Source: an uncultured SAR86 cluster bacterium
GTDB taxonomy: Bacteria > Pseudomonadota > Gammaproteobacteria > Magnimaribacterales > Magnimaribacteraceae
DNA: 64,000 nt
Reading direction: 5' to 3'
NCBI GenBank assembly: GCA_902514295.1
Contig: CABXQE010000002.1
Span: forward strand, 9,938 to 73,937
The translations under genes were made by a program, and so were the position numbers. Shown piece after piece: positions 20,179 through 32,552 of the stretch (its first letter is position 1; every line of letters starts with the position of its first letter). The notes beneath the pieces are model-generated. The model searched no databases. It was not told the origin of the DNA and saw only the letters and a program-made list of their open reading frames with translations.

Positions 20179-20281
20179 GTTCTGCTCTTTTTATATCTAT
20201 GGTTTTAGTATAGATCTAACCTCAGATGGTAGAATTGCATTGTAGATTGTATCTTGAGAATCATATTTGTCGAAAAAACAC

Positions 20282-21289
20282 ATGAAGAGTAAAAATATTT
20301 CTGTATTAGGTGGAGGAAGTTGGGGGACTGTTCTGGCAAATTTAGCTTCACGTAATCAACACAACGTAACTTTATGGATGAGAGATTCTGAAGTTGTTGA
20401 AGAGGTCAATAAATCTAAAAGGAACTCAAAATACTTACCTGAACTTAAGCTTGAAGGAAATATTAACGCTACTGATGATATTTCTTTAATTAATAATTCT
20501 GAGATGGTTATATTTTGCATCCCAAGTGATTCTTTTAGAGAAGTTTCTAAAAAGGCCTCTGAACACATAAATAAAAGTGTTCAGCTTGTTACTGCAACTA
20601 AAGGCGTAGAAAAAGATAAATTTAATTTAATGAGCCAGGTTCTTAATGAGTATATGAGCAATAATCCAGTAGGAATACTTAGCGGCCCCAATTTAGCTGA
20701 AGAAATAGCAACCAAACATTTGTCAGGAACAGTTATTGCAAGTAAAGACAAAGCTCTTCAACAAAATGTAATAGATATTCTAGGATCAGATTTCTTTAGA
20801 GTTTATGAAAATGATGACCCATATGGAGTTGAGATGGGAGGAGCAATTAAAAATATTTATGCCATAGCTTGCGGGGTAGCTGATGGCCTTAATTCTGGGG
20901 AGAACACTGTAGGAATGATTATGACAAGAGGTCTAGGTGAAATGAGTAGATTGGCAGTGGAGTTAGGGGCAAATCCTCAAACATTTTTAGGATTATCTGG
21001 AGTAGGTGATTTAATTACAACATGCGCTTCGCCGTTAAGTCGCAACCATAAATTTGGAAAATATATTGGTGAAGGGCTTTCAGTTAAAAGTGCGACAGAC
21101 AAAATAGGTCAAACTGTTGAAGGCCTAAAGACTCTAAAAGTAGTCAAAGTTTTATCTGATGAAAGAAATATTAATATGCCAATAGTAGATTCTCTATACA
21201 AAATCATCTATAAAGGAGACAACCTTAACGGTTCTATTCAAAATATTTTGGGTGAGGATCTGGTTAAGGATGTAGAATTTTTTAAATAA
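20282..21289 (+). CDS. gpsA: NAD(P)H-dependent glycerol-3-phosphate dehydrogenase
   Basis: VLGGGSWGT, GAIKNIYAIA, typical length. I preferred the ATG at 20282 over the track's TTG at 20267. Confidence 0.92.
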   Translation: MKSKNISVLGGGSWGTVLANLASRNQHNVTLWMRDSEVVEEVNKSKRNSKYLPELKLEGNINATDDISLINNSEMVIFCIPSDSFREVSKKASEHINKSVQLVTATKGVEKDKFNLMSQVLNEYMSNNPVGILSGPNLAEEIATKHLSGTVIASKDKALQQNVIDILGSDFFRVYENDDPYGVEMGGAIKNIYAIACGVADGLNSGENTVGMIMTRGLGEMSRLAVELGANPQTFLGLSGVGDLITTCASPLSRNHKFGKYIGEGLSVKSATDKIGQTVEGLKTLKVVKVLSDERNINMPIVDSLYKIIYKGDNLNGSIQNILGEDLVKDVEFFK

Positions 21290-21644: not shown

Positions 21645-22580
21645 ATGAAAGACTTTAAAAATAAAATTGCCGTGGTCACTGGAGGTGGCACAGGGATGGG
21701 AAGGGAACTTGTTCTGCAGTTAGCAGAAGAAGGATGCGACGTAGCTATGTGCGACGTTATTGCTGAAAACATGGAAGAAACTTTTGAACTTGTGACCAAA
21801 CAATCACCAGATGTATTAGTTACGAAACACACATGCGATGTATCTGATGAAGAACAGGTCTTAAAATTTAAAGATGAAGTTTTATCGGAGCATAAAACTG
21901 AAACTATAAATCTTCTTTTTAATAATGCCGGAATAGGAGGGGGAGCAAGTTTTGTAACTGGCTCAAGAGAAGAATGGGAAAGGTGTTTCGCTGTTTGTTG
22001 GTACGGGGTTTACTATTGCTCTCGAGCATTTATCCCTCATATTGTTTCCAGTGAAGAAGGGCATGTGGTCAATACAAGCAGCGTTAATGGATTTTGGGCT
22101 AGTCTAGGAGGAACGCCTCATACTTCCTACTCTGCCGCCAAATTTGCTGTAAAAGGTTTTAGTGAATCTTTAATAGATGATTTCCGTTTGAATGCTCCTC
22201 ATGTCGGCGTTTCAGTAGTGATGCCAGGACACATAGGTACTTCTATAGCAATTAATACCGGAAAAATATTAGGGGGAGAAAGGACAGAGGAGGATTGGGA
22301 AATGGTGAAACAGAATATGATAAAACTTGGAGCCCCTGTTCACAATCAGTCCATAGACCAGATCAAACAGATGATACAAGAAAGGACAGATTCTTTTGCT
22401 GAGACGGCTCCCACTTCTTCATCTGAAGCTGCAAAAGTAATTTTGGATGGAGTTAAAGATAATAAATGGAGAATATTGATCGGCGACGATGCTAAAGCAA
22501 TTGATGAAATGGTAAGGAGAGATCCTGAAGAAGCATATAATATTACCTTTCAAGGAGATAAAAGAGAGGAAGCAGGATGA
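21645..22580 (+). CDS. SDR family oxidoreductase, long form (311 aa)
   Basis: TGGGTGMG, NNAG, YSAAKFAVKGFSESL, plus a roughly 90-aa C-terminal extension. Confidence 0.88.
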   Translation: MKDFKNKIAVVTGGGTGMGRELVLQLAEEGCDVAMCDVIAENMEETFELVTKQSPDVLVTKHTCDVSDEEQVLKFKDEVLSEHKTETINLLFNNAGIGGGASFVTGSREEWERCFAVCWYGVYYCSRAFIPHIVSSEEGHVVNTSSVNGFWASLGGTPHTSYSAAKFAVKGFSESLIDDFRLNAPHVGVSVVMPGHIGTSIAINTGKILGGERTEEDWEMVKQNMIKLGAPVHNQSIDQIKQMIQERTDSFAETAPTSSSEAAKVILDGVKDNKWRILIGDDAKAIDEMVRRDPEEAYNITFQGDKREEAG

Positions 22581-23488
22581 AAACTTTTAAAGATAAAGTA
22601 GCTGTCATAACAGGAGCTGGTTCTGGAATGGGTCGTTACTTAGCGGTTTTATTAGCGAAAGATGGAGCTGACGTGGTTGTTTGTGACGTCAATCAGGAGA
22701 CCTTAAATGAGACTGTGGAAATGTTAAGGCAATACAACGTATCTGTATCTTCTCATATTTTGGACGTAGCTGATAAGGAAGCCATCCAAGCTCTGCCTGA
22801 AAAGGTTATCGAGCAACACGGCAAAGTTGATTTAGTTTTTAATAATGCAGGTGTAACCGCTGGGTCTCATTTTAAAGATATGGATGAAGAAAATTGGGAT
22901 TGGGTGATGGGTATAAATTTAGAAGGTGTAGTTAATAGCACCAGAGCATTTATACCTCATATGATTGATAGACCTGAAGCAGCGATAGTAAATACTTCTT
23001 CTATTTTTGGGATGGTCGCAGTTCCGGGTCAAACTGTTTACCACGCTACTAAATTTGCGGTAAGAGGATTCACTGAAAGCCTTGCTATGGAAATGTCTCA
23101 ATCTAATCCTAATTTACAAGTCCATTGTGTGCATCCCGGTCATATAGGTACCAACATTGCTGCTACTGCAAGAATGGATGAAGATGAATTTAACAAACAG
23201 TTAGAAGAGCAAGATAAACTTCCCAGTATATTTACACGCAACGCTCCAAAAAGTTTAGAAGAAATGGGCGATCAATTCAGAGAGGGAGGAATGCACCCCA
23301 GTAGAGCTGCAAGCATTATTTTAAATGGGGTAAAGAAAAACAAAAGCAGAATATTTATCGGTTTAGATGCAAAATTATTAGACCTTTCGCAACGCTTATT
23401 TCCTAAGCATTATCATAAAACTTGGCCATTATTTATGCCATTGATGATGATGTTCAGAGACAAGAAACCCCTTAAATCACTTGATTAA
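22577..23488 (+). CDS. SDR family oxidoreductase, long form, paralog of the preceding gene
   Basis: TGAGSGMG, NNAG, YHATKFAVRGFTESL, HPGHIGTNIA (the neighbour has MPGHIGTSIA). ATGA start/stop overlap. Confidence 0.88.
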   Translation: MKTFKDKVAVITGAGSGMGRYLAVLLAKDGADVVVCDVNQETLNETVEMLRQYNVSVSSHILDVADKEAIQALPEKVIEQHGKVDLVFNNAGVTAGSHFKDMDEENWDWVMGINLEGVVNSTRAFIPHMIDRPEAAIVNTSSIFGMVAVPGQTVYHATKFAVRGFTESLAMEMSQSNPNLQVHCVHPGHIGTNIAATARMDEDEFNKQLEEQDKLPSIFTRNAPKSLEEMGDQFREGGMHPSRAASIILNGVKKNKSRIFIGLDAKLLDLSQRLFPKHYHKTWPLFMPLMMMFRDKKPLKSLD

Positions 23489-23839
23489 TTTTTTATACGT
23501 CGAGTAGTTAGGGTTATCTACGGCTATTTTATTCTTTGATAGAAGTATCAATAGATTTTTCAATTCTTCATCTGATAAATCTAAGTCTCCATTCTTAATC
23601 AGGTTCGAAAGTTCTTTGGTTGTTAGATCATCTGATTTGATGATATTTGACATAACCTTAATAACTTCTTCAGACAGTTGTTCCCCTTGATCAATCTCCC
23701 TCTGAACCATACCAAGTACATTATTCGTAATTCTTAATTTAAATGCTAAATGCGGAGGTAATTCATCTTTAATTTTAGTATCTAAGAAATCCATCACTGC
23801 TTTTATTAGTTCACTACTAGTTGGTCTATCAAAAATCAT
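23477..23839 (-). CDS. small helical protein coupled to the APH-fold kinase (LvaB-position / DUF6285-like)
   Basis: 120 aa. The start overlaps the kinase stop (TAATG) and follows GGAGGTGA. The family name is from memory of small proteins that follow this kind of kinase. Confidence 0.55.
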   Translation of the reverse strand: MIFDRPTSSELIKAVMDFLDTKIKDELPPHLAFKLRITNNVLGMVQREIDQGEQLSEEVIKVMSNIIKSDDLTTKELSNLIKNGDLDLSDEELKNLLILLSKNKIAVDNPNYSTYKKLIK

Positions 23840-24822
23840 TATTCACCTCCTAAAAATAATAGATCGACAATATCTATTTCAGTTTCAGAAACCCTTCTGC
23901 CAATTGCTGCCTTTTCTATGGAATTGATTGTTCTGTTTAAATGCGCGTAAGCTTGAATGAGACAAATTACTCCCCATCTGAATGTTCCAAATACTTGCCA
24001 ACACTTCACCATTTCTTTATTGACCTTTAACTTGCTAATCGAATTGTAACCTTCAAGCAAGTCTTCTAGTTCTCCAAAACCCCCTACAACTTTATCGTTT
24101 TTACCGAATCGCCAAGAGTTACCACAGACCCAACCTAAATCTTGAAGAGGGTTTCCTATATGGGCCAGTTCCCAGTCTATGATTGATTGAAGCCCCTCTC
24201 CATTAACAATTATGTTTCCTAACCTAAAATCTCCATGCACTAGACTTTCTTGAAAATTACTAAAGTCTTGTTCTTTTAACCAAAGATAAGCGTATTCAAA
24301 AACAGGGGAGGGTTGCTCAAAAGATTGATAGGTTGCGTAGAGGTCTTCAAGTTGATCTTCAGCTGGTTTTTTAGGTAAGAAGGAGAAATTATCAATATCA
24401 ACATTGTGAACTTTAGCAATAGCTTCACCGCATTGATAAGCCAATAAAGGAAGTGCCTTTTTATATTCTTTGTCTCTTAGTATTTTTCTTGCAATGGTTT
24501 CTCCTTCAACAAAATGCATTATGTAAGAGTCTCCTAACTCTTCTTCGTTCTTAGAGACTGCTAATATTATTGGTACGGGTGCACCTGCTTTAATTACTTC
24601 CTTTTGTATTCTGGCTTCGTCTGCAGTTTTTATTGCAAGAGGCCCTTCTATACCTGAGCCCCTTCTAAGAATCATCTTTGTAGTTTGTTTAGCGTTAGAA
24701 ACTTCAAATTTCCAGATCTCTTTAGAGGCGCCTCCTGTAAGAGGCTCAAGATTAGAAACTTTTCCTTCTATACCTACTTCAAGTAGTTTTTTGGAAAGCG
24801 ATGATGCTAATTCTTCTTGCAT
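23839..24822 (-). CDS. phosphotransferase (aminoglycoside-phosphotransferase/APH fold), LvaA / ACAD10-11 kinase-domain-like
   Basis: Catalytic loop HGDFRLGNIIV (HxDxxxxN) and IDWELAH metal-binding Asp motif; 327 aa. Confidence 0.85.
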   Translation of the reverse strand: MQEELASSLSKKLLEVGIEGKVSNLEPLTGGASKEIWKFEVSNAKQTTKMILRRGSGIEGPLAIKTADEARIQKEVIKAGAPVPIILAVSKNEEELGDSYIMHFVEGETIARKILRDKEYKKALPLLAYQCGEAIAKVHNVDIDNFSFLPKKPAEDQLEDLYATYQSFEQPSPVFEYAYLWLKEQDFSNFQESLVHGDFRLGNIIVNGEGLQSIIDWELAHIGNPLQDLGWVCGNSWRFGKNDKVVGGFGELEDLLEGYNSISKLKVNKEMVKCWQVFGTFRWGVICLIQAYAHLNRTINSIEKAAIGRRVSETEIDIVDLLFLGGE

Positions 24823-26033
24823 TAATTAGATTCTAAGCTGGCATCTCTTTCACCAAAATCCCATCCAGCACCATTATTCTGATAGTTCTTTAAAATTCTC
24901 CTAGCAACAGATTGGACATGAACCTCATCGGGTCCGTCATAAATCCGAGCCTCCCTAGCATGCCTGTACATTAAACTAAGAGGAGTATCGTCAGTAAGAC
25001 CTTTAGCTCCATGAACTTGTATGGCTCTATCTATAACGTTATGAACCATTTTCGCACCCACAACCTTAATCATCCCTATCTCAATTCTTGCGTCATCTCC
25101 TTGATCTATTCTTTTTGCAGCATCTAGAGTAAGTTGCCTACTAGCTTGAATTTCACAAGCACTATCAAATACAAATTTTTGTAACAATTGCTTATCAGCC
25201 AGTGAGCTTCCAAACGCTTCTCTTTCATGCATTCTTAAACACATAAGGTCAAATGCTCTTTGAGCTTGACCCAACCATCTCATGCAATGAAAGATTCTTC
25301 CTGGACCTAACCTCCTTTGAGCGATGAGGAACCCTTGACCTCTAGGACCCAATAGATTTTCTTCTGGTACTCTTACGTTATCATAATCGACTTCATAATG
25401 GCCTCCGTGACCACCGTGTATCCCTAATACAGGAGTATCTCTTACGATTTTGTACCCAGGATTATCTGTAGGAACAATAATCATACTGAAAGCTCCGTGG
25501 CTAGGAACATCTAATTCAGTTCTACACATTACCGTTGTGTAAGTAGCTCCGGCAGCTCCAGAGGTAAACCATTTTCTTCCATTAATCACCCACTCATCAC
25601 CTTCCAAAATTCCTGTGGTTTGAAGTTGAGTCGGGTCAGAACTAGAAATGTCTGGTTCAGTCATTCCAAAACTTGGAAAGATTTCTCCAGCAACTAGCGG
25701 TTCTAGGTATTCATCGCGCCATCTTTTAGAAGCAAATTCTCTTAACATGATTGAATCTTGCAAAGAGTGAGTCCCTAAGGCAACCATAGCGCTAGAGGAC
25801 CTTCCAATTACCTCATTTATGTATACGTACTCCATAAAAGGCATCCCTTGGCCACCTATATCTTCAGGATGTCCGAGTGCCCATAGAGAATTATCTTTGG
25901 CCTTTTGCATTAATTCTTGCATTTTCTTTGTAGACTCATCATCTCTCTTATGAAGAATCTCTTCCGCAGGATAAACTTCGTTTTCTACGAATTCTTTAAC
26001 TTCTTTTCTTACTTTCTTCCAATCTCTACTCAT
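24822..26033 (-). CDS. acyl-CoA dehydrogenase, FadE2 / ACAD10-11 subfamily (LvaC-like)
   Basis: ACAD fold. The C-terminal RIYDGPDEVH is the variant typical of the FadE2/ACAD10/ACAD11 clade. I chose the ATG at 26033, preceded by GGAGGG; the track starts at the TTG at 26045. Confidence 0.88.
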   Translation of the reverse strand: MSRDWKKVRKEVKEFVENEVYPAEEILHKRDDESTKKMQELMQKAKDNSLWALGHPEDIGGQGMPFMEYVYINEVIGRSSSAMVALGTHSLQDSIMLREFASKRWRDEYLEPLVAGEIFPSFGMTEPDISSSDPTQLQTTGILEGDEWVINGRKWFTSGAAGATYTTVMCRTELDVPSHGAFSMIIVPTDNPGYKIVRDTPVLGIHGGHGGHYEVDYDNVRVPEENLLGPRGQGFLIAQRRLGPGRIFHCMRWLGQAQRAFDLMCLRMHEREAFGSSLADKQLLQKFVFDSACEIQASRQLTLDAAKRIDQGDDARIEIGMIKVVGAKMVHNVIDRAIQVHGAKGLTDDTPLSLMYRHAREARIYDGPDEVHVQSVARRILKNYQNNGAGWDFGERDASLESN

Positions 26034-26045
26034 TGTTCCCTCCAA

Positions 26046-27782
26046 CTAAAATTTTATAGGCTTTTTAAATCCTTTTAACTTCATTCCTTTTCTTGAAATC
26101 TCTATATCTGTCTCTCCGTTAAGCACGTTTTCATTAAATTTATAAGTAACCTGATAGTCTCCTTTTAAACATGACCTATTATATTGAGAAGATTTCTTTT
26201 GAGTCTCTCCTATATTCTTTAAATATTGATTATATTTATTTTTAGTAACTAAGCTTTTCATTTTTATTTGAGTCTCTTCAGGGGAAAGAATAAAAGCCGA
26301 AGCATTGTTTCCTCCAAATCCTTTGGCATTTAAGAAACACCCTTTATAAAAATTTTGTTCTTCCGTTTTATCTTCAAGAAGAATGTCTAAGTTTTCGGAG
26401 TAAACATCATCGGCTAAAGTGTCGGTAGAATGAATCCCAGGTATTATTCCTTTATTCCAAGTTCCAAGTGAAGCTATAAGCTGATCTCCTGAAGCCGGAG
26501 CCATGCTATGACCGAGATAACTTTTTATTGCCGTAATAGGCCAGTTCTTTATGCCAAAAGTAGTTGCTATCTCATTAAGTATGTGTGACTCAGTAGTCCT
26601 ATTTGCAGGAGTTCCAGTTCCATGAGCATGTACAAATGTATTTTGCCTTAAGAGCTTAAGGCCTAAATCTTTCTCGGCGTCTGCCGCGCATTTAGCCATG
26701 GTTATATAATTACCTACACCCGGTCCACTAATTGAGCTTTTATGTCCATCTGAATGAGAGTGAACTGAAGCAACAGAGCCAAAAATGTCAGCTCCGAGTT
26801 CTATCGCAAGTTTAGCTTCCATTAGGATTACAAATTGAGATGATTCACCTAAAACCATACCAGCATTATTACCAAAAGGGCGACAAGCTCGAGTTTGAAT
26901 AGGCCCTGAATCAATTGATTCTCCATTTGAAGCTTGAAGTTCAAGCATTCTCTTATCATCAGATAAGGCAGACATGGCAAAGAAACCATCTATTATTTCA
27001 GGTGTTATAGGGGCTTCTGCTGCTCCTACAATAGATACTTTAGAGCTACCTGATTCTATAGCTTCTTTTCCCATTTGAAGGTTATAAAGGAAAGTTGCGC
27101 AAGCCCCTACGCTATGACCGGTTCTTCCTACATTACCAAGTACATATGCGTTAATGAAATCTGCAGACATTTCAACTAACCCTAAAGCCAAATTTTTTGA
27201 GCTTGCCCTTGAACCCTTGATTCTAGATTGCATAAGACCACCAAAACCAAAACTATCCAATTGACCAATTGCAGCACCACTGAATACTGAAACTTCATCA
27301 GGATTTATTTTTTCCTGAACTTCTTCCCACTTAAATCCAAGCTGACCAATGGCATCACTCATGCCAAAAATAGTCATTTGTAAGGCTTTGGGGTGCTGTC
27401 TTGCGGGGTAATAAGTTGATGGATCAAAACCTTTGGGTAGTTGGCCAGCAGCACTGGCTTTTATTTGATCTAGGATCACACCATCTGGATCATAGACTTC
27501 CTTATCAATTTTTCGAATGAAACAGTCTTTTCTAATTGAGGACAAATTTTCAAGTAAATATTCTTTAAGATTAATGGAGTCTCCGGAAACCGTCTCCCAG
27601 CCACTACCAACAGTTTCTATCTTGCCTTGTAAAATAGCTAAATCTTGAAGAACTTCTAATTGTTCTTTTTCTTGAAGTGAATTAAATACTAGATTTTTAT
27701 ATCCTAAGAAGTTTGAAGACCTTCCCGATGAGTTAATACCTCCGAATCCTGAGATTACTGCTAAAGGTTTATTCTTGCTCAT
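26046..27782 (-). CDS. beta-ketoacyl synthase, KAS I/II catalytic triad, enlarged FabY-like form (578 aa)
   Basis: Cys-His-His triad contexts GACATF, HAHGTGTP, GHSM. The N-terminus AVISGFGGINSSGRSS and the roughly 65-aa extra N-terminal length (active-site Cys near residue 228 by my count) resemble P. aeruginosa FabY from memory. Confidence 0.8.
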   Translation of the reverse strand: MSKNKPLAVISGFGGINSSGRSSNFLGYKNLVFNSLQEKEQLEVLQDLAILQGKIETVGSGWETVSGDSINLKEYLLENLSSIRKDCFIRKIDKEVYDPDGVILDQIKASAAGQLPKGFDPSTYYPARQHPKALQMTIFGMSDAIGQLGFKWEEVQEKINPDEVSVFSGAAIGQLDSFGFGGLMQSRIKGSRASSKNLALGLVEMSADFINAYVLGNVGRTGHSVGACATFLYNLQMGKEAIESGSSKVSIVGAAEAPITPEIIDGFFAMSALSDDKRMLELQASNGESIDSGPIQTRACRPFGNNAGMVLGESSQFVILMEAKLAIELGADIFGSVASVHSHSDGHKSSISGPGVGNYITMAKCAADAEKDLGLKLLRQNTFVHAHGTGTPANRTTESHILNEIATTFGIKNWPITAIKSYLGHSMAPASGDQLIASLGTWNKGIIPGIHSTDTLADDVYSENLDILLEDKTEEQNFYKGCFLNAKGFGGNNASAFILSPEETQIKMKSLVTKNKYNQYLKNIGETQKKSSQYNRSCLKGDYQVTYKFNENVLNGETDIEISRKGMKLKGFKKPIKF

Positions 27783-27863
27783 CGATAAAAATTCTTTTTA
27801 CTTAAGTGCCTATTGTATGGCAATATTTATTAAAGAATATCAATTTATAACAAGGGAGAAGTT

Positions 27864-29399
27864 ATGCACCCGGGCATCAACGGAAAAAAATTTCCAAATA
27901 AACCTGCTTTAATAATGAACGGAAGCGGCAAGGTAGTTACTCATGGAGAGTTAAATGATTTATCTAATCAAGGAGCTCAGCTTTTTAGGTCTTTAGGTTT
28001 AGTTCCAGGTGATTCCATAGCGATCATGCTAGAGAACCATTTTTTGTTCTTTCCGATAATATTTGCAGCTTGGCGAAGCGGACTTAGGTACACAGCAATA
28101 AGTTGGAGGCTCCAGCCGGATGAAGTTGAATACATTGTTAGAGATTGTGAAGCTAAAGTTTTTATAACCTCTAAATTTTTAGAAGAAACTGCTTTGAATT
28201 TAGATTCCTCTCTCAAAGATGTTCATAAGTTTATGCTTGATGGCTCGACTAATAATTTTCTTTCTTATGAAGAATCTATCGCCTTACAGCCTGAAGATCC
28301 CATTTCTGATGAGTGTGTTGGAGGTCCAATGCTCTATTCTTCAGGAACTACAGGCAGACCAAAGGGAGTTAGTAGAGAATTAAGTTTAGACCCTTTGCCC
28401 TATTCTAAAGAAAATGGAGATCCAAGCTTATCTAGGGTTCTATTACTTTATGGAGCTAACGAAGACAGTATCTACCTTTCTCCAGCGCCTATGTATCATT
28501 CCGCACCATTGAACTTCTGCACTGCATTTCTAGCTGAAGGCTCTACTTGCGTAATTTTAGAGAAATTTGATGCTGAAGGTGCTTTGCAAGCAATAGAAAA
28601 ACATAAGGTAACGCATTCGCAATGGGTACCAACTATGTTCGTAAGATTTTTAAAATTTGACCCTTCAGTCAGAACTCAATTTGATTTATCTAGTCATCAA
28701 GTTGCAATACACGCTGCCGCACCTTGCCCTATAGAAGTTAAAGAGCAAATGATAGATTGGTGGGGCCCTATACTTTATGAATATTACGCAGGAACAGAGT
28801 TTAATGGCATGACTTTTATAAATTCTGAGGAATGGTTAAGTCATAAAGGTTCTGTTGGGAAATCTCTTTTTGGAGCACTAGACATTCTTGATGAAAATGG
28901 AGAGCAACTGCCTCCAGGAGAAACCGGCGGTGTTTACTTTGGAGGGGAAACGGCTACAACCTTTAAATATCATAATGATGAAGAAAAAACTAAAGAAGCA
29001 ATGACTAAACAAGGTTATAGCACTTTAGGGGATGTGGGTTATCTAGATGAAGAAGGATATTTATATCTAACTGATCGTAAGTCTTTCATGATTATTTCTG
29101 GAGGAGTAAACATTTATCCCAAAGAAACAGAAGATGCTCTAGTAATGCATCCTAAAGTAGCTGACGTAGCCGTTTTTGGGGTTCCAAACGATGAAATGGG
29201 TGAAGAAGTTAAGGCGGTAATTCAACCTGAGAATATGGCTGATGCAGGTCCAGATTTAGAAGCTGAACTGATGGCTTACTGCAAAGAAAAAATCTCCTCC
29301 GTTAAATGCCCTAAATCCATTGATTTTGAAAAGGAGTTACCTCGGCACCCAACTGGTAAACTTTACAAGCGTCTTTTAAAAGACAAGTATTGGCCTTAA
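27864..29399 (+). CDS. acyl-CoA synthetase (AMP-forming adenylate-forming enzyme)
   Basis: AMP-binding signature YSSGTTGRPKG, YGxTE-like YYAGTEF, GDVGYLDEEGYLYLTDR. Confidence 0.9.
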   Translation: MHPGINGKKFPNKPALIMNGSGKVVTHGELNDLSNQGAQLFRSLGLVPGDSIAIMLENHFLFFPIIFAAWRSGLRYTAISWRLQPDEVEYIVRDCEAKVFITSKFLEETALNLDSSLKDVHKFMLDGSTNNFLSYEESIALQPEDPISDECVGGPMLYSSGTTGRPKGVSRELSLDPLPYSKENGDPSLSRVLLLYGANEDSIYLSPAPMYHSAPLNFCTAFLAEGSTCVILEKFDAEGALQAIEKHKVTHSQWVPTMFVRFLKFDPSVRTQFDLSSHQVAIHAAAPCPIEVKEQMIDWWGPILYEYYAGTEFNGMTFINSEEWLSHKGSVGKSLFGALDILDENGEQLPPGETGGVYFGGETATTFKYHNDEEKTKEAMTKQGYSTLGDVGYLDEEGYLYLTDRKSFMIISGGVNIYPKETEDALVMHPKVADVAVFGVPNDEMGEEVKAVIQPENMADAGPDLEAELMAYCKEKISSVKCPKSIDFEKELPRHPTGKLYKRLLKDKYWP

Positions 29400-30062
29400 A
29401 TGAGCACTAAAAGATCACTGGTCGCTGGCTCCACTGGCCTAGTTGGAGAGGCGTTAGTTAAGCAGTTAGCTTCAAATAAGAATTATGTAAAAACCCTCTC
29501 TAGAAATGAGCTAAGTCCTTCTAATCCTTTAGTTGATAACATTAAAGTAGATTTTGAGAATTTAAATTTGTACCAAGAGCACTTTAAAGAAGTAGATGAA
29601 GTTTACATATGCCTTGGGACAACTATCTCAAAAGCTGGCTCCAAAGAGGCCTTTGGAAAAGTTGATATAGACTATTGTTTAGAAACAGCTAAACAGGCGC
29701 GTAATGCAGGAGTAAGAAACCTTTCCTTGATTACTTCAGTGGGGGCTGATTTAGATTCTTCTAATTTCTACCTAAGGACCAAAGGAATTATTGAAGATAA
29801 AATCTCACAATTAGATTTTCAATCACTCTCCATTCACAGACCAGGTCTTTTAATAGGACCTAGAAAAGAAATGAGACTCGCTGAATTCATTGGACAAAAG
29901 ATCCACCCCGTTTTAGTTAACCCATTACTATTTGGGAATCTATCTAAATACAAGTGCATAAAAGTTGAGATTTTGTCTAGGGCTATGATGAATTGCTCTG
30001 GTTTAGAAAAAGGAACTAAATATTATTACTACAACGATTTTATTGAAAAGGGAAGAAGTTAA
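29400..30062 (+). CDS. NAD(P)H-binding atypical SDR / NmrA-HTATIP2-like protein
   Basis: N-terminal VAGSTGLVG Rossmann motif; 220 aa. The ATG directly abuts the acyl-CoA synthetase stop. Confidence 0.7.
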   Translation: MSTKRSLVAGSTGLVGEALVKQLASNKNYVKTLSRNELSPSNPLVDNIKVDFENLNLYQEHFKEVDEVYICLGTTISKAGSKEAFGKVDIDYCLETAKQARNAGVRNLSLITSVGADLDSSNFYLRTKGIIEDKISQLDFQSLSIHRPGLLIGPRKEMRLAEFIGQKIHPVLVNPLLFGNLSKYKCIKVEILSRAMMNCSGLEKGTKYYYYNDFIEKGRS

Positions 30063-30063
30063 A

Positions 30064-31524
30064 TTAACCTGCTTTTTTAAACTTCAAATCTGAATCTTCT
30101 ATACTTTTAAATCTGACTTGAAAAAGATCTTTTAGATAATTTTGAGTGTTTATCCAAGGGTCTTTTGAACCTTGCTTGGGTAGCGTGTGAGCAACTCTTT
30201 GTATGTAACCAGAAGTTAAATCTAGAAAATCGCTATCGGCAGCTACGTCTTCACCAGCTTCGGGACAAAAATAATCCATGCCTTTTTTGTCTAGAAGATT
30301 TATCAACCTACAAGCGTACTCACTGGTTAGATCAGCTCCCAATGTCCATGAAGCTGTTGTGTATCCAAATGTCGCCACAAGATTAGGCACATCACTAAAC
30401 ATCATGGTTTTGTATTGTATTTTTTTTGAAATATCTAAAGTTTCATTATCAATCTTAATATCTATTCCGTTTAAGAGCCTCATATTCAGACCTGTCGCTG
30501 TAATAATAATGTCAGCTTCGAGTACTTTACCCGAATCCAGTTTAATTCCTTTTGTTGAGAACTCATCTATGGTGTCTGTAACCACTGAAACCTTTCCGGA
30601 ATTTATAGCTTCAAACATGTCACCATTCGGTACTAAACACATGCGTTGATCCCAAGGCATATATTTAGGCGTGAAGTGTTTATCGATATCGTAATCAGGG
30701 CCTAAAAGATCTTTAACTCCATTAATTAGCATCTCTTTATATTTAAGTGGTTTTTTCTTAACCTGAGATACAAAAAAACGACCCAAAAGAATATTTTTCC
30801 ATCTAACCAGGAAATAGCCGATCTTGTCTGTAGTAAATCTTTTAAGAAATTCATCTAATCCACTTCGGTCTGGTGCAGCCATGTAGTAAGTAGGTGATCT
30901 TTGTAGCATGGTGATGTGTGATACTTTCCCTGCCATCGAGGGAATAATAGTTACAGCTGTTGCGCCACTTCCAACCACAACCACTTTCTTGTCAGAATAA
31001 TCCAGATCTTCAGGCCATTTCTGAGGGTGAATAATTTGACCTTCAAAGTTATCTCTACCTTTAAATTCAGGAGTATATCCTTCATCATAATTGTAATACC
31101 CCCCACATAAATAAAGAATATTACAACTCATAACTTCCACAGAATTGTTAGATTGATCTTCTACTTCTAGACTCCAAAGAGCTTCGCTAGTATTCCAAGA
31201 GGCACTAATTACTTTCTTTTGAAATTGAATTTTTTCTTCAAGGTTATTTTCTTCTACCGCTTCTTTTAGGTATTGAATAATTGATGGGCCATCAGCAATT
31301 GTTTTAGGGTCTGTCCAGGGCTTAAATCTAAAACCCATGGTGTGCATATCAGAATCCGATCTTATGCCTGGGTACTTGAATAGATCCCAAGTTCCTCCAA
31401 TATTCTCTCTTCCTTCAAGAATGGTGAATGTTTTTTGAGGACAGGTTTTTTGAAGATTATAGGCAGCACCAATTCCTGAAATACCTGCTCCAACAACGAC
31501 AACGTCTTTATGATTTATTTCCAT
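30064..31524 (-). CDS. type I Baeyer-Villiger (flavin-containing) monooxygenase
   Basis: FAD motif GAGISG, BVMO fingerprint FEGQIIHPQKWP (FxGxxxHxxxWP), NADPH motif GSGATA. Confidence 0.88.
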   Translation of the reverse strand: MEINHKDVVVVGAGISGIGAAYNLQKTCPQKTFTILEGRENIGGTWDLFKYPGIRSDSDMHTMGFRFKPWTDPKTIADGPSIIQYLKEAVEENNLEEKIQFQKKVISASWNTSEALWSLEVEDQSNNSVEVMSCNILYLCGGYYNYDEGYTPEFKGRDNFEGQIIHPQKWPEDLDYSDKKVVVVGSGATAVTIIPSMAGKVSHITMLQRSPTYYMAAPDRSGLDEFLKRFTTDKIGYFLVRWKNILLGRFFVSQVKKKPLKYKEMLINGVKDLLGPDYDIDKHFTPKYMPWDQRMCLVPNGDMFEAINSGKVSVVTDTIDEFSTKGIKLDSGKVLEADIIITATGLNMRLLNGIDIKIDNETLDISKKIQYKTMMFSDVPNLVATFGYTTASWTLGADLTSEYACRLINLLDKKGMDYFCPEAGEDVAADSDFLDLTSGYIQRVAHTLPKQGSKDPWINTQNYLKDLFQVRFKSIEDSDLKFKKAG

Positions 31525-31554: not shown

Positions 31555-32388
31555 TTAAGAATTTTCACAAGCTTCTACCGTTTGCAGAATTAAAGTATTT
31601 ATTGTCATGGGACCAACCCCTCCAGGTACTGGAGTGTAAGCCAAACTTCTCTCAATTACTTGATCCAAGTCAATATCACCACATTTCTCAGGGTGATAAC
31701 CAGCATCGATCACAACGGCGTCATCTTTTATCCAATCACCTTGAATAAATTTTGGTATGCCTACGGCTCCAACTACTATGTCTGCTAAAGATATTTGATC
31801 TTTAAGATCTTCAGTTCTTGAGTGGCATATAGTAACAGTCGCGTTTTCATTCAATAACATCATTGCCATAGGCTTTCCTAGAATAGGGCTCCTGCCTATA
31901 ACAACTGCACGTTTTCCTTCTATCTCAATTTCGTAGTGATGAAGCAACCTCATAATGCCTTGTGGAGTGCAAGATCCAAAAGCCTTTTCTCCCATAGACA
32001 TTCTTCCAAAACCTAGAGAGGTAACGCCATCTACATCTTTTTTAGCATCTATGGCATCAAAGCACATCCTTTCATCTATTTGTTCTGGAACAGGGTGTTG
32101 AAGAAGAATGCCGTGAACCTCTTTATTTAAGTTTAGCTTGTTAATTTCATCTAATAGCCCTTCAGTTGAAGTAGAAGAGGGCAGCTCAACTTTTATAGAT
32201 TTCATACCGATTCTTTCACAAGCATTGCCTTTCATTTTTACATAAGTCGCTGAGGCAGGATCATCTCCCACTAATATGGTTGCAAGTATAGGTACAAATC
32301 CTTTTTTTTCCTGCAAAGCTTTAACCCTCTCTCTCAACATTTCTTCTGTCTCAAGAGCTACTTTTTTCCCATCTAATTGAATACTCAT
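31555..32388 (-). CDS. folD: bifunctional methylenetetrahydrofolate dehydrogenase / methenyl-THF cyclohydrolase
   Basis: [11 protein letters not shown]... N-terminus, [34 protein letters not shown] trimmed the track's N-terminal extension to the ATG at 32388. Confidence 0.93.
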
Positions 32389-32552
32389 GAAGTATATTTT
32401 CTCACGCACTTGATTAATAAGAAAACCCTTTTGACAAAAAAAATAAACTCGAAGAAGTTGCATTAAAAAAATAGTGCTAAGTTTTAGAATATAACTTATT
32501 ATTAAATCAAGATAGTCTTAATTATATTGAGCTATCAGTATTTTATTAATAA

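Follow-up and report, generated by a model that had tools for sequence, protein, structure and literature searches.

A FabY-type ketoacyl synthase gene, probably the initiator of fatty-acid synthesis, among catabolic genes of a SAR86 cluster bacterium

Results

The fabY gene and its closest neighbors

We analyzed a stretch of 64,000 nucleotides, referred to here as the window, from an uncultured SAR86 cluster bacterium of the order Magnimaribacterales (GenBank assembly GCA_902514295.1, contig CABXQE010000002.1, positions 9,938 to 73,937 of the forward strand; the genome comprises 1.23 Mb in 58 contigs and is 79% complete). The gene in question, fabY, lies on the minus strand at positions 26046 to 27782 of the window and encodes a 578-residue β-ketoacyl-acyl carrier protein (ACP) synthase (KAS) of the FabY class. 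A first-pass annotation of this DNA had described the product as an enlarged KAS with the Cys-His-His triad of the KAS I/II type, and all the motifs that it quoted were located. The motif AVISGFGGINSSGRSS starts at residue 8, GACATF at residue 226, HAHGTGTP at residue 385 and GHSM at residue 424, so that the catalytic residues are Cys228, His387 and His425. The protein contains the N- and C-terminal ketoacyl synthase domains (Pfam PF00109 and PF02801), and the term enlarged is justified by the 407 amino acids of the FabB-type protein from the same genome (contig C13) and the 407 positions of the fabF model.

The fabY reading frame ends with TAG and is followed by a 12-nt spacer with a GGAGG Shine-Dalgarno sequence (TTGGAGGGAACA, positions 26034 to 26045), exactly the distance that had been described, after which an acyl-CoA dehydrogenase (ACAD) gene begins with ATG at position 26033. 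This gene (24822 to 26033, minus strand) specifies an enzyme of the ACAD10/11 or LvaC type according to Pfam, with a score of 248 bits to the ACAD11 structure 8v3u. Next in the same orientation come genes for an LvaA-like kinase of the aminoglycoside phosphotransferase (APH) fold (23839 to 24822) and for a small DUF6285 protein in the position of LvaB (23477 to 23839), both also assigned with Pfam. On the other side of fabY, an 81-nt intergenic region (27783 to 27863) separates it from a divergent gene for a FadD4/PRK13390-like acyl-CoA synthetase (27864 to 29399, plus strand). As the first-pass annotation had noted, there is no fab gene in this neighborhood: fabD and fabG are located on contig C26, fabF on C51 and the gene for the FabB-type KAS on C13.

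The protein belongs to the FabY family

In a search of all PDB sequences, the top match was FabY of Pseudomonas aeruginosa (4cw4_A; 505 bits, E-value 1.7e-150, query residues 7 to 577), while the next matches, the ketosynthase (KS) of the fungal fatty acid synthase alpha subunit and FabF, reached 75 and 74 bits, respectively. The fabF model TIGR03150 gave 115.3 bits, against a curated cut-off of 493.75 and against 532 bits for the genuine fabF on C51. An identity as a KS of a polyketide synthase (PKS) or of a polyunsaturated fatty acid (PUFA) synthase was ruled out by scores of 17 bits to PfaA, 22.6 bits to Pks13 and 44 bits to a type II PKS KS. A tree was built from 45 sequences, 43 FabY homologs plus the FabB- and FabF-type proteins of this genome; the FabY clade had a support of 100, and the branch between it and the latter two was 4.44 substitutions per site long. 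All 43 aligned FabY sequences retain the Cys/His/His triad, and close homologs are labeled 'acetoacetyl-[acyl-carrier protein] synthase' by JGI. Judged by similarity, triad and clade, the protein is a true FabY ortholog, that is, an initiating KAS of the PA5174 type, and neither the scores nor the tree place it with FabF or with the KS domains of PKS or PUFA synthases. FabY is a known family, and the protein already carries this name in automatic annotation.

FabY has been described as an enzyme with the KAS I/II domains and a Cys-His-His triad that strongly prefers acetyl-CoA, according to the account given in PMC4549310 (citing Yuan et al. 2012 for the enzyme class); its biochemistry is also touched upon in PMC8666670 and PMC12323585. 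All FabY proteins of the order are compact (550 to 582 amino acids), the gap in the alignment falling at residues ~107 to 109 of the window protein, and most other gammaproteobacterial FabY proteins have 605 to 646 amino acids. Two basal outgroup members (family f205) are short as well.

Candidate initiators of fatty-acid synthesis in the genome and in the order

The initiator activity that we infer for this FabY follows from its family membership and from the absence of alternatives. The best match of the fabH model in the window genome reached 138 bits, compared to a cut-off of 292 bits, so that this 79%-complete genome contains no canonical FabH, in answer to a check that the first-pass annotation had proposed. 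The matching protein, which is the sole remaining candidate initiator besides FabY, is a 372-residue KAS III of the PRK07515 type (605 bits; C10:14317-15432, corresponding to L007:1492-2610, minus strand). Its identities, 53% to a protein encoded on 135 Ralstonia megaplasmids and 60% to a P. aeruginosa protein, assign it to the PA3286/RsFabW family. Members of this family prime synthesis with medium-chain acyl-CoAs (PMC4549310). The fab cluster of the genome (C26:9118-11029) consists of a yceD-like gene, a 233-nt gap that we take to hold rpmF, fabD and fabG, after which the contig ends; the position between rpmF and fabD, where plsX and fabH classically lie, holds neither gene in this cluster.

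Of the 151 genomes searched in the order, a single one, with 4% contamination, had a FabH above the curated cut-off. The malonyl-ACP decarboxylase MadA/YiiD, which permits FabH-independent initiation in Escherichia coli (PMC8666670), was not found in the five genomes that were searched for it. FabY itself was present in 37 of the 40 genomes searched in family f1, to which the window genome belongs, and in 11 of 40 in f2, 34 of 40 in f3 and 23 of 30 in f4. The corresponding numbers for the PA3286-type KAS III are 25 of 40, 36 of 40, 4 of 40 and 1 of 30. The distributions of the two proteins are complementary within the order, as 25 of 28 genomes encode the KAS III in the genera without FabY (g8, g11, g14, g16, g18 and g21) and 45 of 54 encode FabY in genera nearly without the KAS III (g6, g10, g12 and g13). 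FabY is thereby the sole dedicated initiator in sight for most genomes of f3 and f4. Six genera of family f2 have the PA3286-type KAS III alone, without FabY. In one f3 genome of genus g12 (G144:C2:944409-946032), the FabY reading frame is in two pieces and broken by TAG, TGA and TAA, which may represent a pseudogene or an assembly error; the KAS III search gave no hit in G144 either.

Gene order around fabY

We compared the 8-kb flanks of fabY in 45 loci, the open reading frames of high-GC loci being picked with a filter on GC content at third codon positions (GC3). Every genome of the order that carries FabY carries it in single copy, and the FabY tree mirrors the families, with f1 sister to f3 and f2 sister to f4. 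To judge from these sequence relationships, FabY has been inherited vertically across the order. A folD-fabY-gpsA frame occurs in all four families as well as in G337, a genome that does not belong to the order. The two anchors in the window are folD (31555 to 32463, minus strand), upstream of fabY, and downstream of it gpsA (20267 to 21289, plus strand), which encodes NAD-dependent glycerol-3-phosphate dehydrogenase. Like fabY, gpsA serves phospholipid synthesis, and the lva-like genes are thus inserted between two housekeeping genes of lipid biosynthesis.

What lies within this frame differs between the families. In f2 and f4, fabY directly follows folD and has no acyl-CoA gene nearby; no synthetase ortholog was found in the f2 and f4 genomes searched, and no kinase ortholog in an f4 genome that has FabY. 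In f3, the acyl-CoA synthetase gene is divergent upstream of fabY and one gene for a short-chain dehydrogenase/reductase (SDR2) converges on it; an intact ACAD-kinase-DUF6285 trio is found on the same contig, ~326 kb (G019) or 600 kb (G003) away from fabY. The divergent pair of synthetase gene and fabY is kept in f1 and f3, with synthetase identities of 69 to 80%, and also occurs in the outgroup genome G203 (54%). The kinase-DUF6285 pair behind fabY is restricted to f1, and there it was present in all seven sampled genera. An ACAD gene lies between fabY and the kinase gene in genera g1, g4, g5 and g6. In g2 and g3, the kinase gene directly follows fabY and an 85-90% identical ACAD is encoded elsewhere; in g7, represented by a 67%-complete genome, the string lacks the ACAD as well, and the search turned up nothing closer than relatives of 43% identity. 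Because the ACAD is separated from the kinase-DUF6285 pair in g2 and g3, a strict one-operon partnership between ACAD and kinase has not been maintained. The linkage of KAS and catabolic genes is accordingly a property of the family and not of a single strain, contrary to one possibility that the first-pass annotation had considered. ACAD identity amounts to 83-90% across f1 and f3, compared to 48-59% for the kinase and ~50% for FabY, and further examples of this ACAD were recorded at G019:C1:141385-143900, G001:C4:65155-66357 and G005:C2:407223-408416.

Two further genes of the window, for an NAD(P)-binding protein (29400-30062, plus strand) and a flavin monooxygenase (30064-31524, minus strand), are insertions specific to f1 that separate folD from the synthetase gene. 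Beyond the DUF6285 gene lie two SDR genes that converge on the fabY string (21645 to 23488, plus strand; SDR2 at 22577-23488), a DUF4389 gene and gpsA. The new neighborhood in f1 was not accompanied by any sign of a change in function or of faster protein change, since the f1 stem measures 0.29 in the FabY tree and the stems of f3 and f4 are longer (0.61 and 1.33, respectively).

FabY neighborhoods outside the order

Among 397 gammaproteobacterial genomes sampled outside the order, 16 have FabY (19 of 400 if the window genome and two others from the order are counted). In all 16 outgroup loci, and in the Arenicella locus L020 as well, fabY has neither an ACAD ortholog nor a kinase gene as a neighbor. 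An ortholog of the synthetase is missing from 15 of the 16, and relatives with 25% identity occur within 8 kb in two. The neighbors are heterogeneous and include genes for an AraC/DJ-1 (GlxA/AraC) regulator, a GNAT protein, a 4HBT thioesterase, TrkH, TolB, a rhomboid protein and KARI. The gene upstream of fabY encodes the GlxA/AraC regulator in three of nine scanned loci of other families and not in the remaining six, and further loci of this kind have a divergent gene of 330-350 codons in that place. In family f111, which resembles Pseudomonas and has large genomes of 4.7 to 5.7 Mb, a gene for a small 4HBT-type thioesterase comes after fabY in the same orientation (L045:9426-9851 and L046:7525-7953); ahead of fabY, L045 has a divergent gene for a DJ-1/AraC (GlxA-type) regulator and L046 a gene for a 344-residue protein. 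In the comparison of neighborhoods that the first-pass annotation had called for, the linkage held across f1 and was lacking both in the outgroup loci and in the other families of the order.

Transcription of the string and the divergent spacer

The gaps that follow fabY measure 1-21 nt and contain GGAG-type sites in the 11 of 14 f1 loci in which they were readable; the window locus, one of the other three, has the 12 nt given above. Since the gaps are this short and 12 nt cannot accommodate a terminator or a promoter, transcription of the catabolic genes most likely starts at the fabY promoter and yields a shared transcript. A scan of positions 23300 to 28000 detected no terminator-like hairpin between fabY and the ACAD gene. 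The same region contains nine promoter-like sites, compared to a mean of 13.6 in shuffled sequence, and one of the nine, a weak site with 9 of 12 matches (26078-26051, minus strand), lies just ahead of the ACAD start.

The spacer between fabY and the synthetase gene contains a partly palindromic 15-nt element (ATATTG...CAATAT) at positions 27812-27826, which reads ATATTGCCATACAAT in the direction of fabY. It is exactly conserved in 11 of 13 aligned f1 loci and present as a variant in one more, covering six of the seven f1 genera, and the spacer around it has diverged across these genera. Neither the g2 locus nor the f3 spacers contain the element. A genome-wide search for a regulon showed that it is unique in the genome at one mismatch or fewer; a second match to an 11-nt core, on C6, lies inside a coding frame of 485 amino acids and is probably due to chance. 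We regard the 15-nt element as a candidate promoter core or operator.

Discussion

The data presented here argue, with good confidence, that FabY is the fatty-acid initiator of this organism and that its gene is a vertically inherited housekeeping gene, which became a bystander to the catabolic genes that were inserted around it in family f1. FabY would join acetyl-CoA to malonyl-ACP, yielding acetoacetyl-ACP, and would in this way provide the first step of type II fatty-acid synthesis for a lineage lacking FabH. The ancestral place of fabY would have been between folD and gpsA. An acyl-CoA synthetase gene and one SDR gene would then have been added in the common ancestor of f1 and f3, followed in f1 only by the insertion of an ACAD-kinase-DUF6285 (LvaC/A/B-like) unit directly downstream of fabY and by the addition of the monooxygenase gene, the gene for the NAD-binding protein and a second SDR gene. 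On this account fabY would be a trapped bystander that lends its promoter and has no catalytic part in the 4-hydroxyacyl-CoA pathway. We interpret the placement of accessory genes behind a constitutive essential gene as a simple route to their expression in genomes of 1.2-1.8 Mb. To call the gene order unusual, as the first-pass annotation had done, was an overstatement; the arrangement looks like the accretion of genes in a densely packed genome of this size.

Several points weigh against this interpretation. The pairing of the synthetase gene with fabY and the tight linkage of fabY and the kinase gene in seven genera could reflect selection for joint expression instead of packing. The absence of genes is a weaker argument for the window genome, at 79% completeness, than it is for the order-wide pattern. 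Finally, the segment of ~55 residues that is missing from the FabY proteins of the order may bear on substrate choice.

The first-pass annotation had left two options, namely a core biosynthetic initiator that is co-transcribed with a degradative kinase/ACAD module or a KAS-fold enzyme with a role in the catabolic pathway, and it is the former that the present data support. In the latter case FabY would not initiate synthesis, and instead would perform a thiolase-like C-C cleavage or a Claisen step in a 4-oxo- or 4-hydroxy-acid pathway. The position of fabY as the first gene of a tight string with the ACAD, kinase and DUF6285 genes, away from any other fab gene, is compatible with such a role, which we nevertheless consider very improbable because fabY predates the linkage, persists in f4 without the module and is unlinked from it in f3. 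The same single-copy ortholog occupies the folD-gpsA locus in these families, and it shows no accelerated divergence on the f1 branch. It also stays in place where the ACAD has left the string (g2 and g3, with the ortholog elsewhere, and g7, where none was found), and a catabolic FabY would leave the majority of f3 and f4 genomes with no dedicated initiator. To our knowledge, no condensing enzyme belongs to the known lva operon or is needed by it. A separate question is whether the ACAD-kinase-DUF6285 genes have a promoter of their own inside the 3' end of fabY, with no shared transcript. The weak site at 26078-26051 would suit this arrangement, which is rather unlikely, given that this site, in a region with fewer promoter-like sites than shuffled sequence, is at chance level and that the short gaps and the lack of a hairpin described above speak against it; a promoter for the ACAD gene would leave the identity of FabY unchanged.

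FabY might also be a primer enzyme that is functionally coupled to its neighbors, taking short acyl-CoAs from the synthetase and the 4-hydroxyacid module, so that acetyl-, propionyl- or other short CoA esters of scavenged acids enter lipid synthesis in the way that octanoyl-CoA does through PA3286 in P. aeruginosa. The divergent pair of synthetase gene and fabY has been kept in f1, f3 and the outgroup genome G203, while the searched f2 and f4 genomes have no ortholog of the synthetase, and most f1 genera share an almost unchanged 15-nt element in the 81-nt spacer between the two genes. Moreover, the end products of an lva-type route would be acetyl-CoA and propionyl-CoA, as is established for the Lva pathway of Pseudomonas putida. 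These observations favor coupling, yet we regard it as unlikely, since acetyl-CoA is ubiquitous and its supply needs no linkage, f2 and f4 retain fabY without a nearby acyl-CoA gene, the neighbors in the outgroup loci are unrelated (15 of 16 lacking the synthetase ortholog), and FabY is described as highly selective for acetyl-CoA in PMC4549310. A more specific form of this idea, to which we attach still less weight, holds that the f1 FabY is wired by the divergent control region and the common transcript to the synthetase and the 4-hydroxyacid module, so that scavenged short acids, once activated and trimmed, would serve as direct primers in the synthesis of membrane lipids. Loss of the 55-residue segment might have broadened the primer range of the compact FabY. 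If this were true, a shunt from catabolism to synthesis would have been built on FabY and not on a KAS III.

If FabY is the initiator and bystander for which we argue, these abundant streamlined marine Gammaproteobacteria would start fatty-acid synthesis in the manner of Pseudomonas, with FabY, a PA3286-type KAS III, or both replacing FabH. The order-wide replacement of FabH, the compact form of FabY and the gradual build-up of the island are of use for comparative work, although a specialist will not be surprised by them, and the locus offers a clear and datable case of operon growth in compact genomes, in which catabolic genes were added stepwise behind a housekeeping gene. It also cautions against equating adjacency with a shared function, and for annotation it means that fabY should not be counted in the lva-like pathway.

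Comparison with known systems

The catabolic part of the locus resembles the lvaABCDE operon of P. putida and mammalian ACAD10/ACAD11, which comprise a 4-hydroxyacyl-CoA kinase plus an eliminating ACAD (PMC12440821, PMC11342911). The ACAD encoded downstream of fabY is closest to ACAD11, and the APH-fold kinase, the small DUF6285 partner and the nearby acyl-CoA synthetase and SDR genes complete the likeness; the locus differs in that fabY has the synthetase gene on one side and the ACAD-kinase unit on the other, an arrangement restricted to f1. We rejected fabY as a component of an lva or ACAD10-11 system, as the linkage is absent from f3, from the f4 genome without a kinase ortholog, from the 16 outgroup loci and from L020. 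With FabF and FabB the window protein shares the thiolase-like KAS I/II fold and the Cys-His-His triad, but it has ~170 extra residues, and the genome has separate genes for FabF and a FabB-type protein. PA3286/FabW provides a precedent for a primer enzyme that joins acyl-CoA catabolism to synthesis (PMC4549310), although it belongs to another fold class, the KAS III enzymes with a Cys-His-Asn triad, and is a protein separate from the window FabY.

The closest parallel is FabY of P. aeruginosa itself (PA5174, 4CW4). Residues 7-107 and 109-577 of the window protein align with residues 9-109 and 167-627 of the P. aeruginosa chain, so that the window protein is ~55 residues shorter and residues ~110-166 of PA5174 have no counterpart. 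Unlike its P. aeruginosa relative, the window fabY is followed by ACAD and kinase genes. The two proteins nonetheless have in common the FabY-specific N-terminal (GFGG.N..GRSS) and C-terminal extensions and the Cys-His-His triad, and P. aeruginosa likewise combines a genome without FabH with a PA3286-type KAS III.

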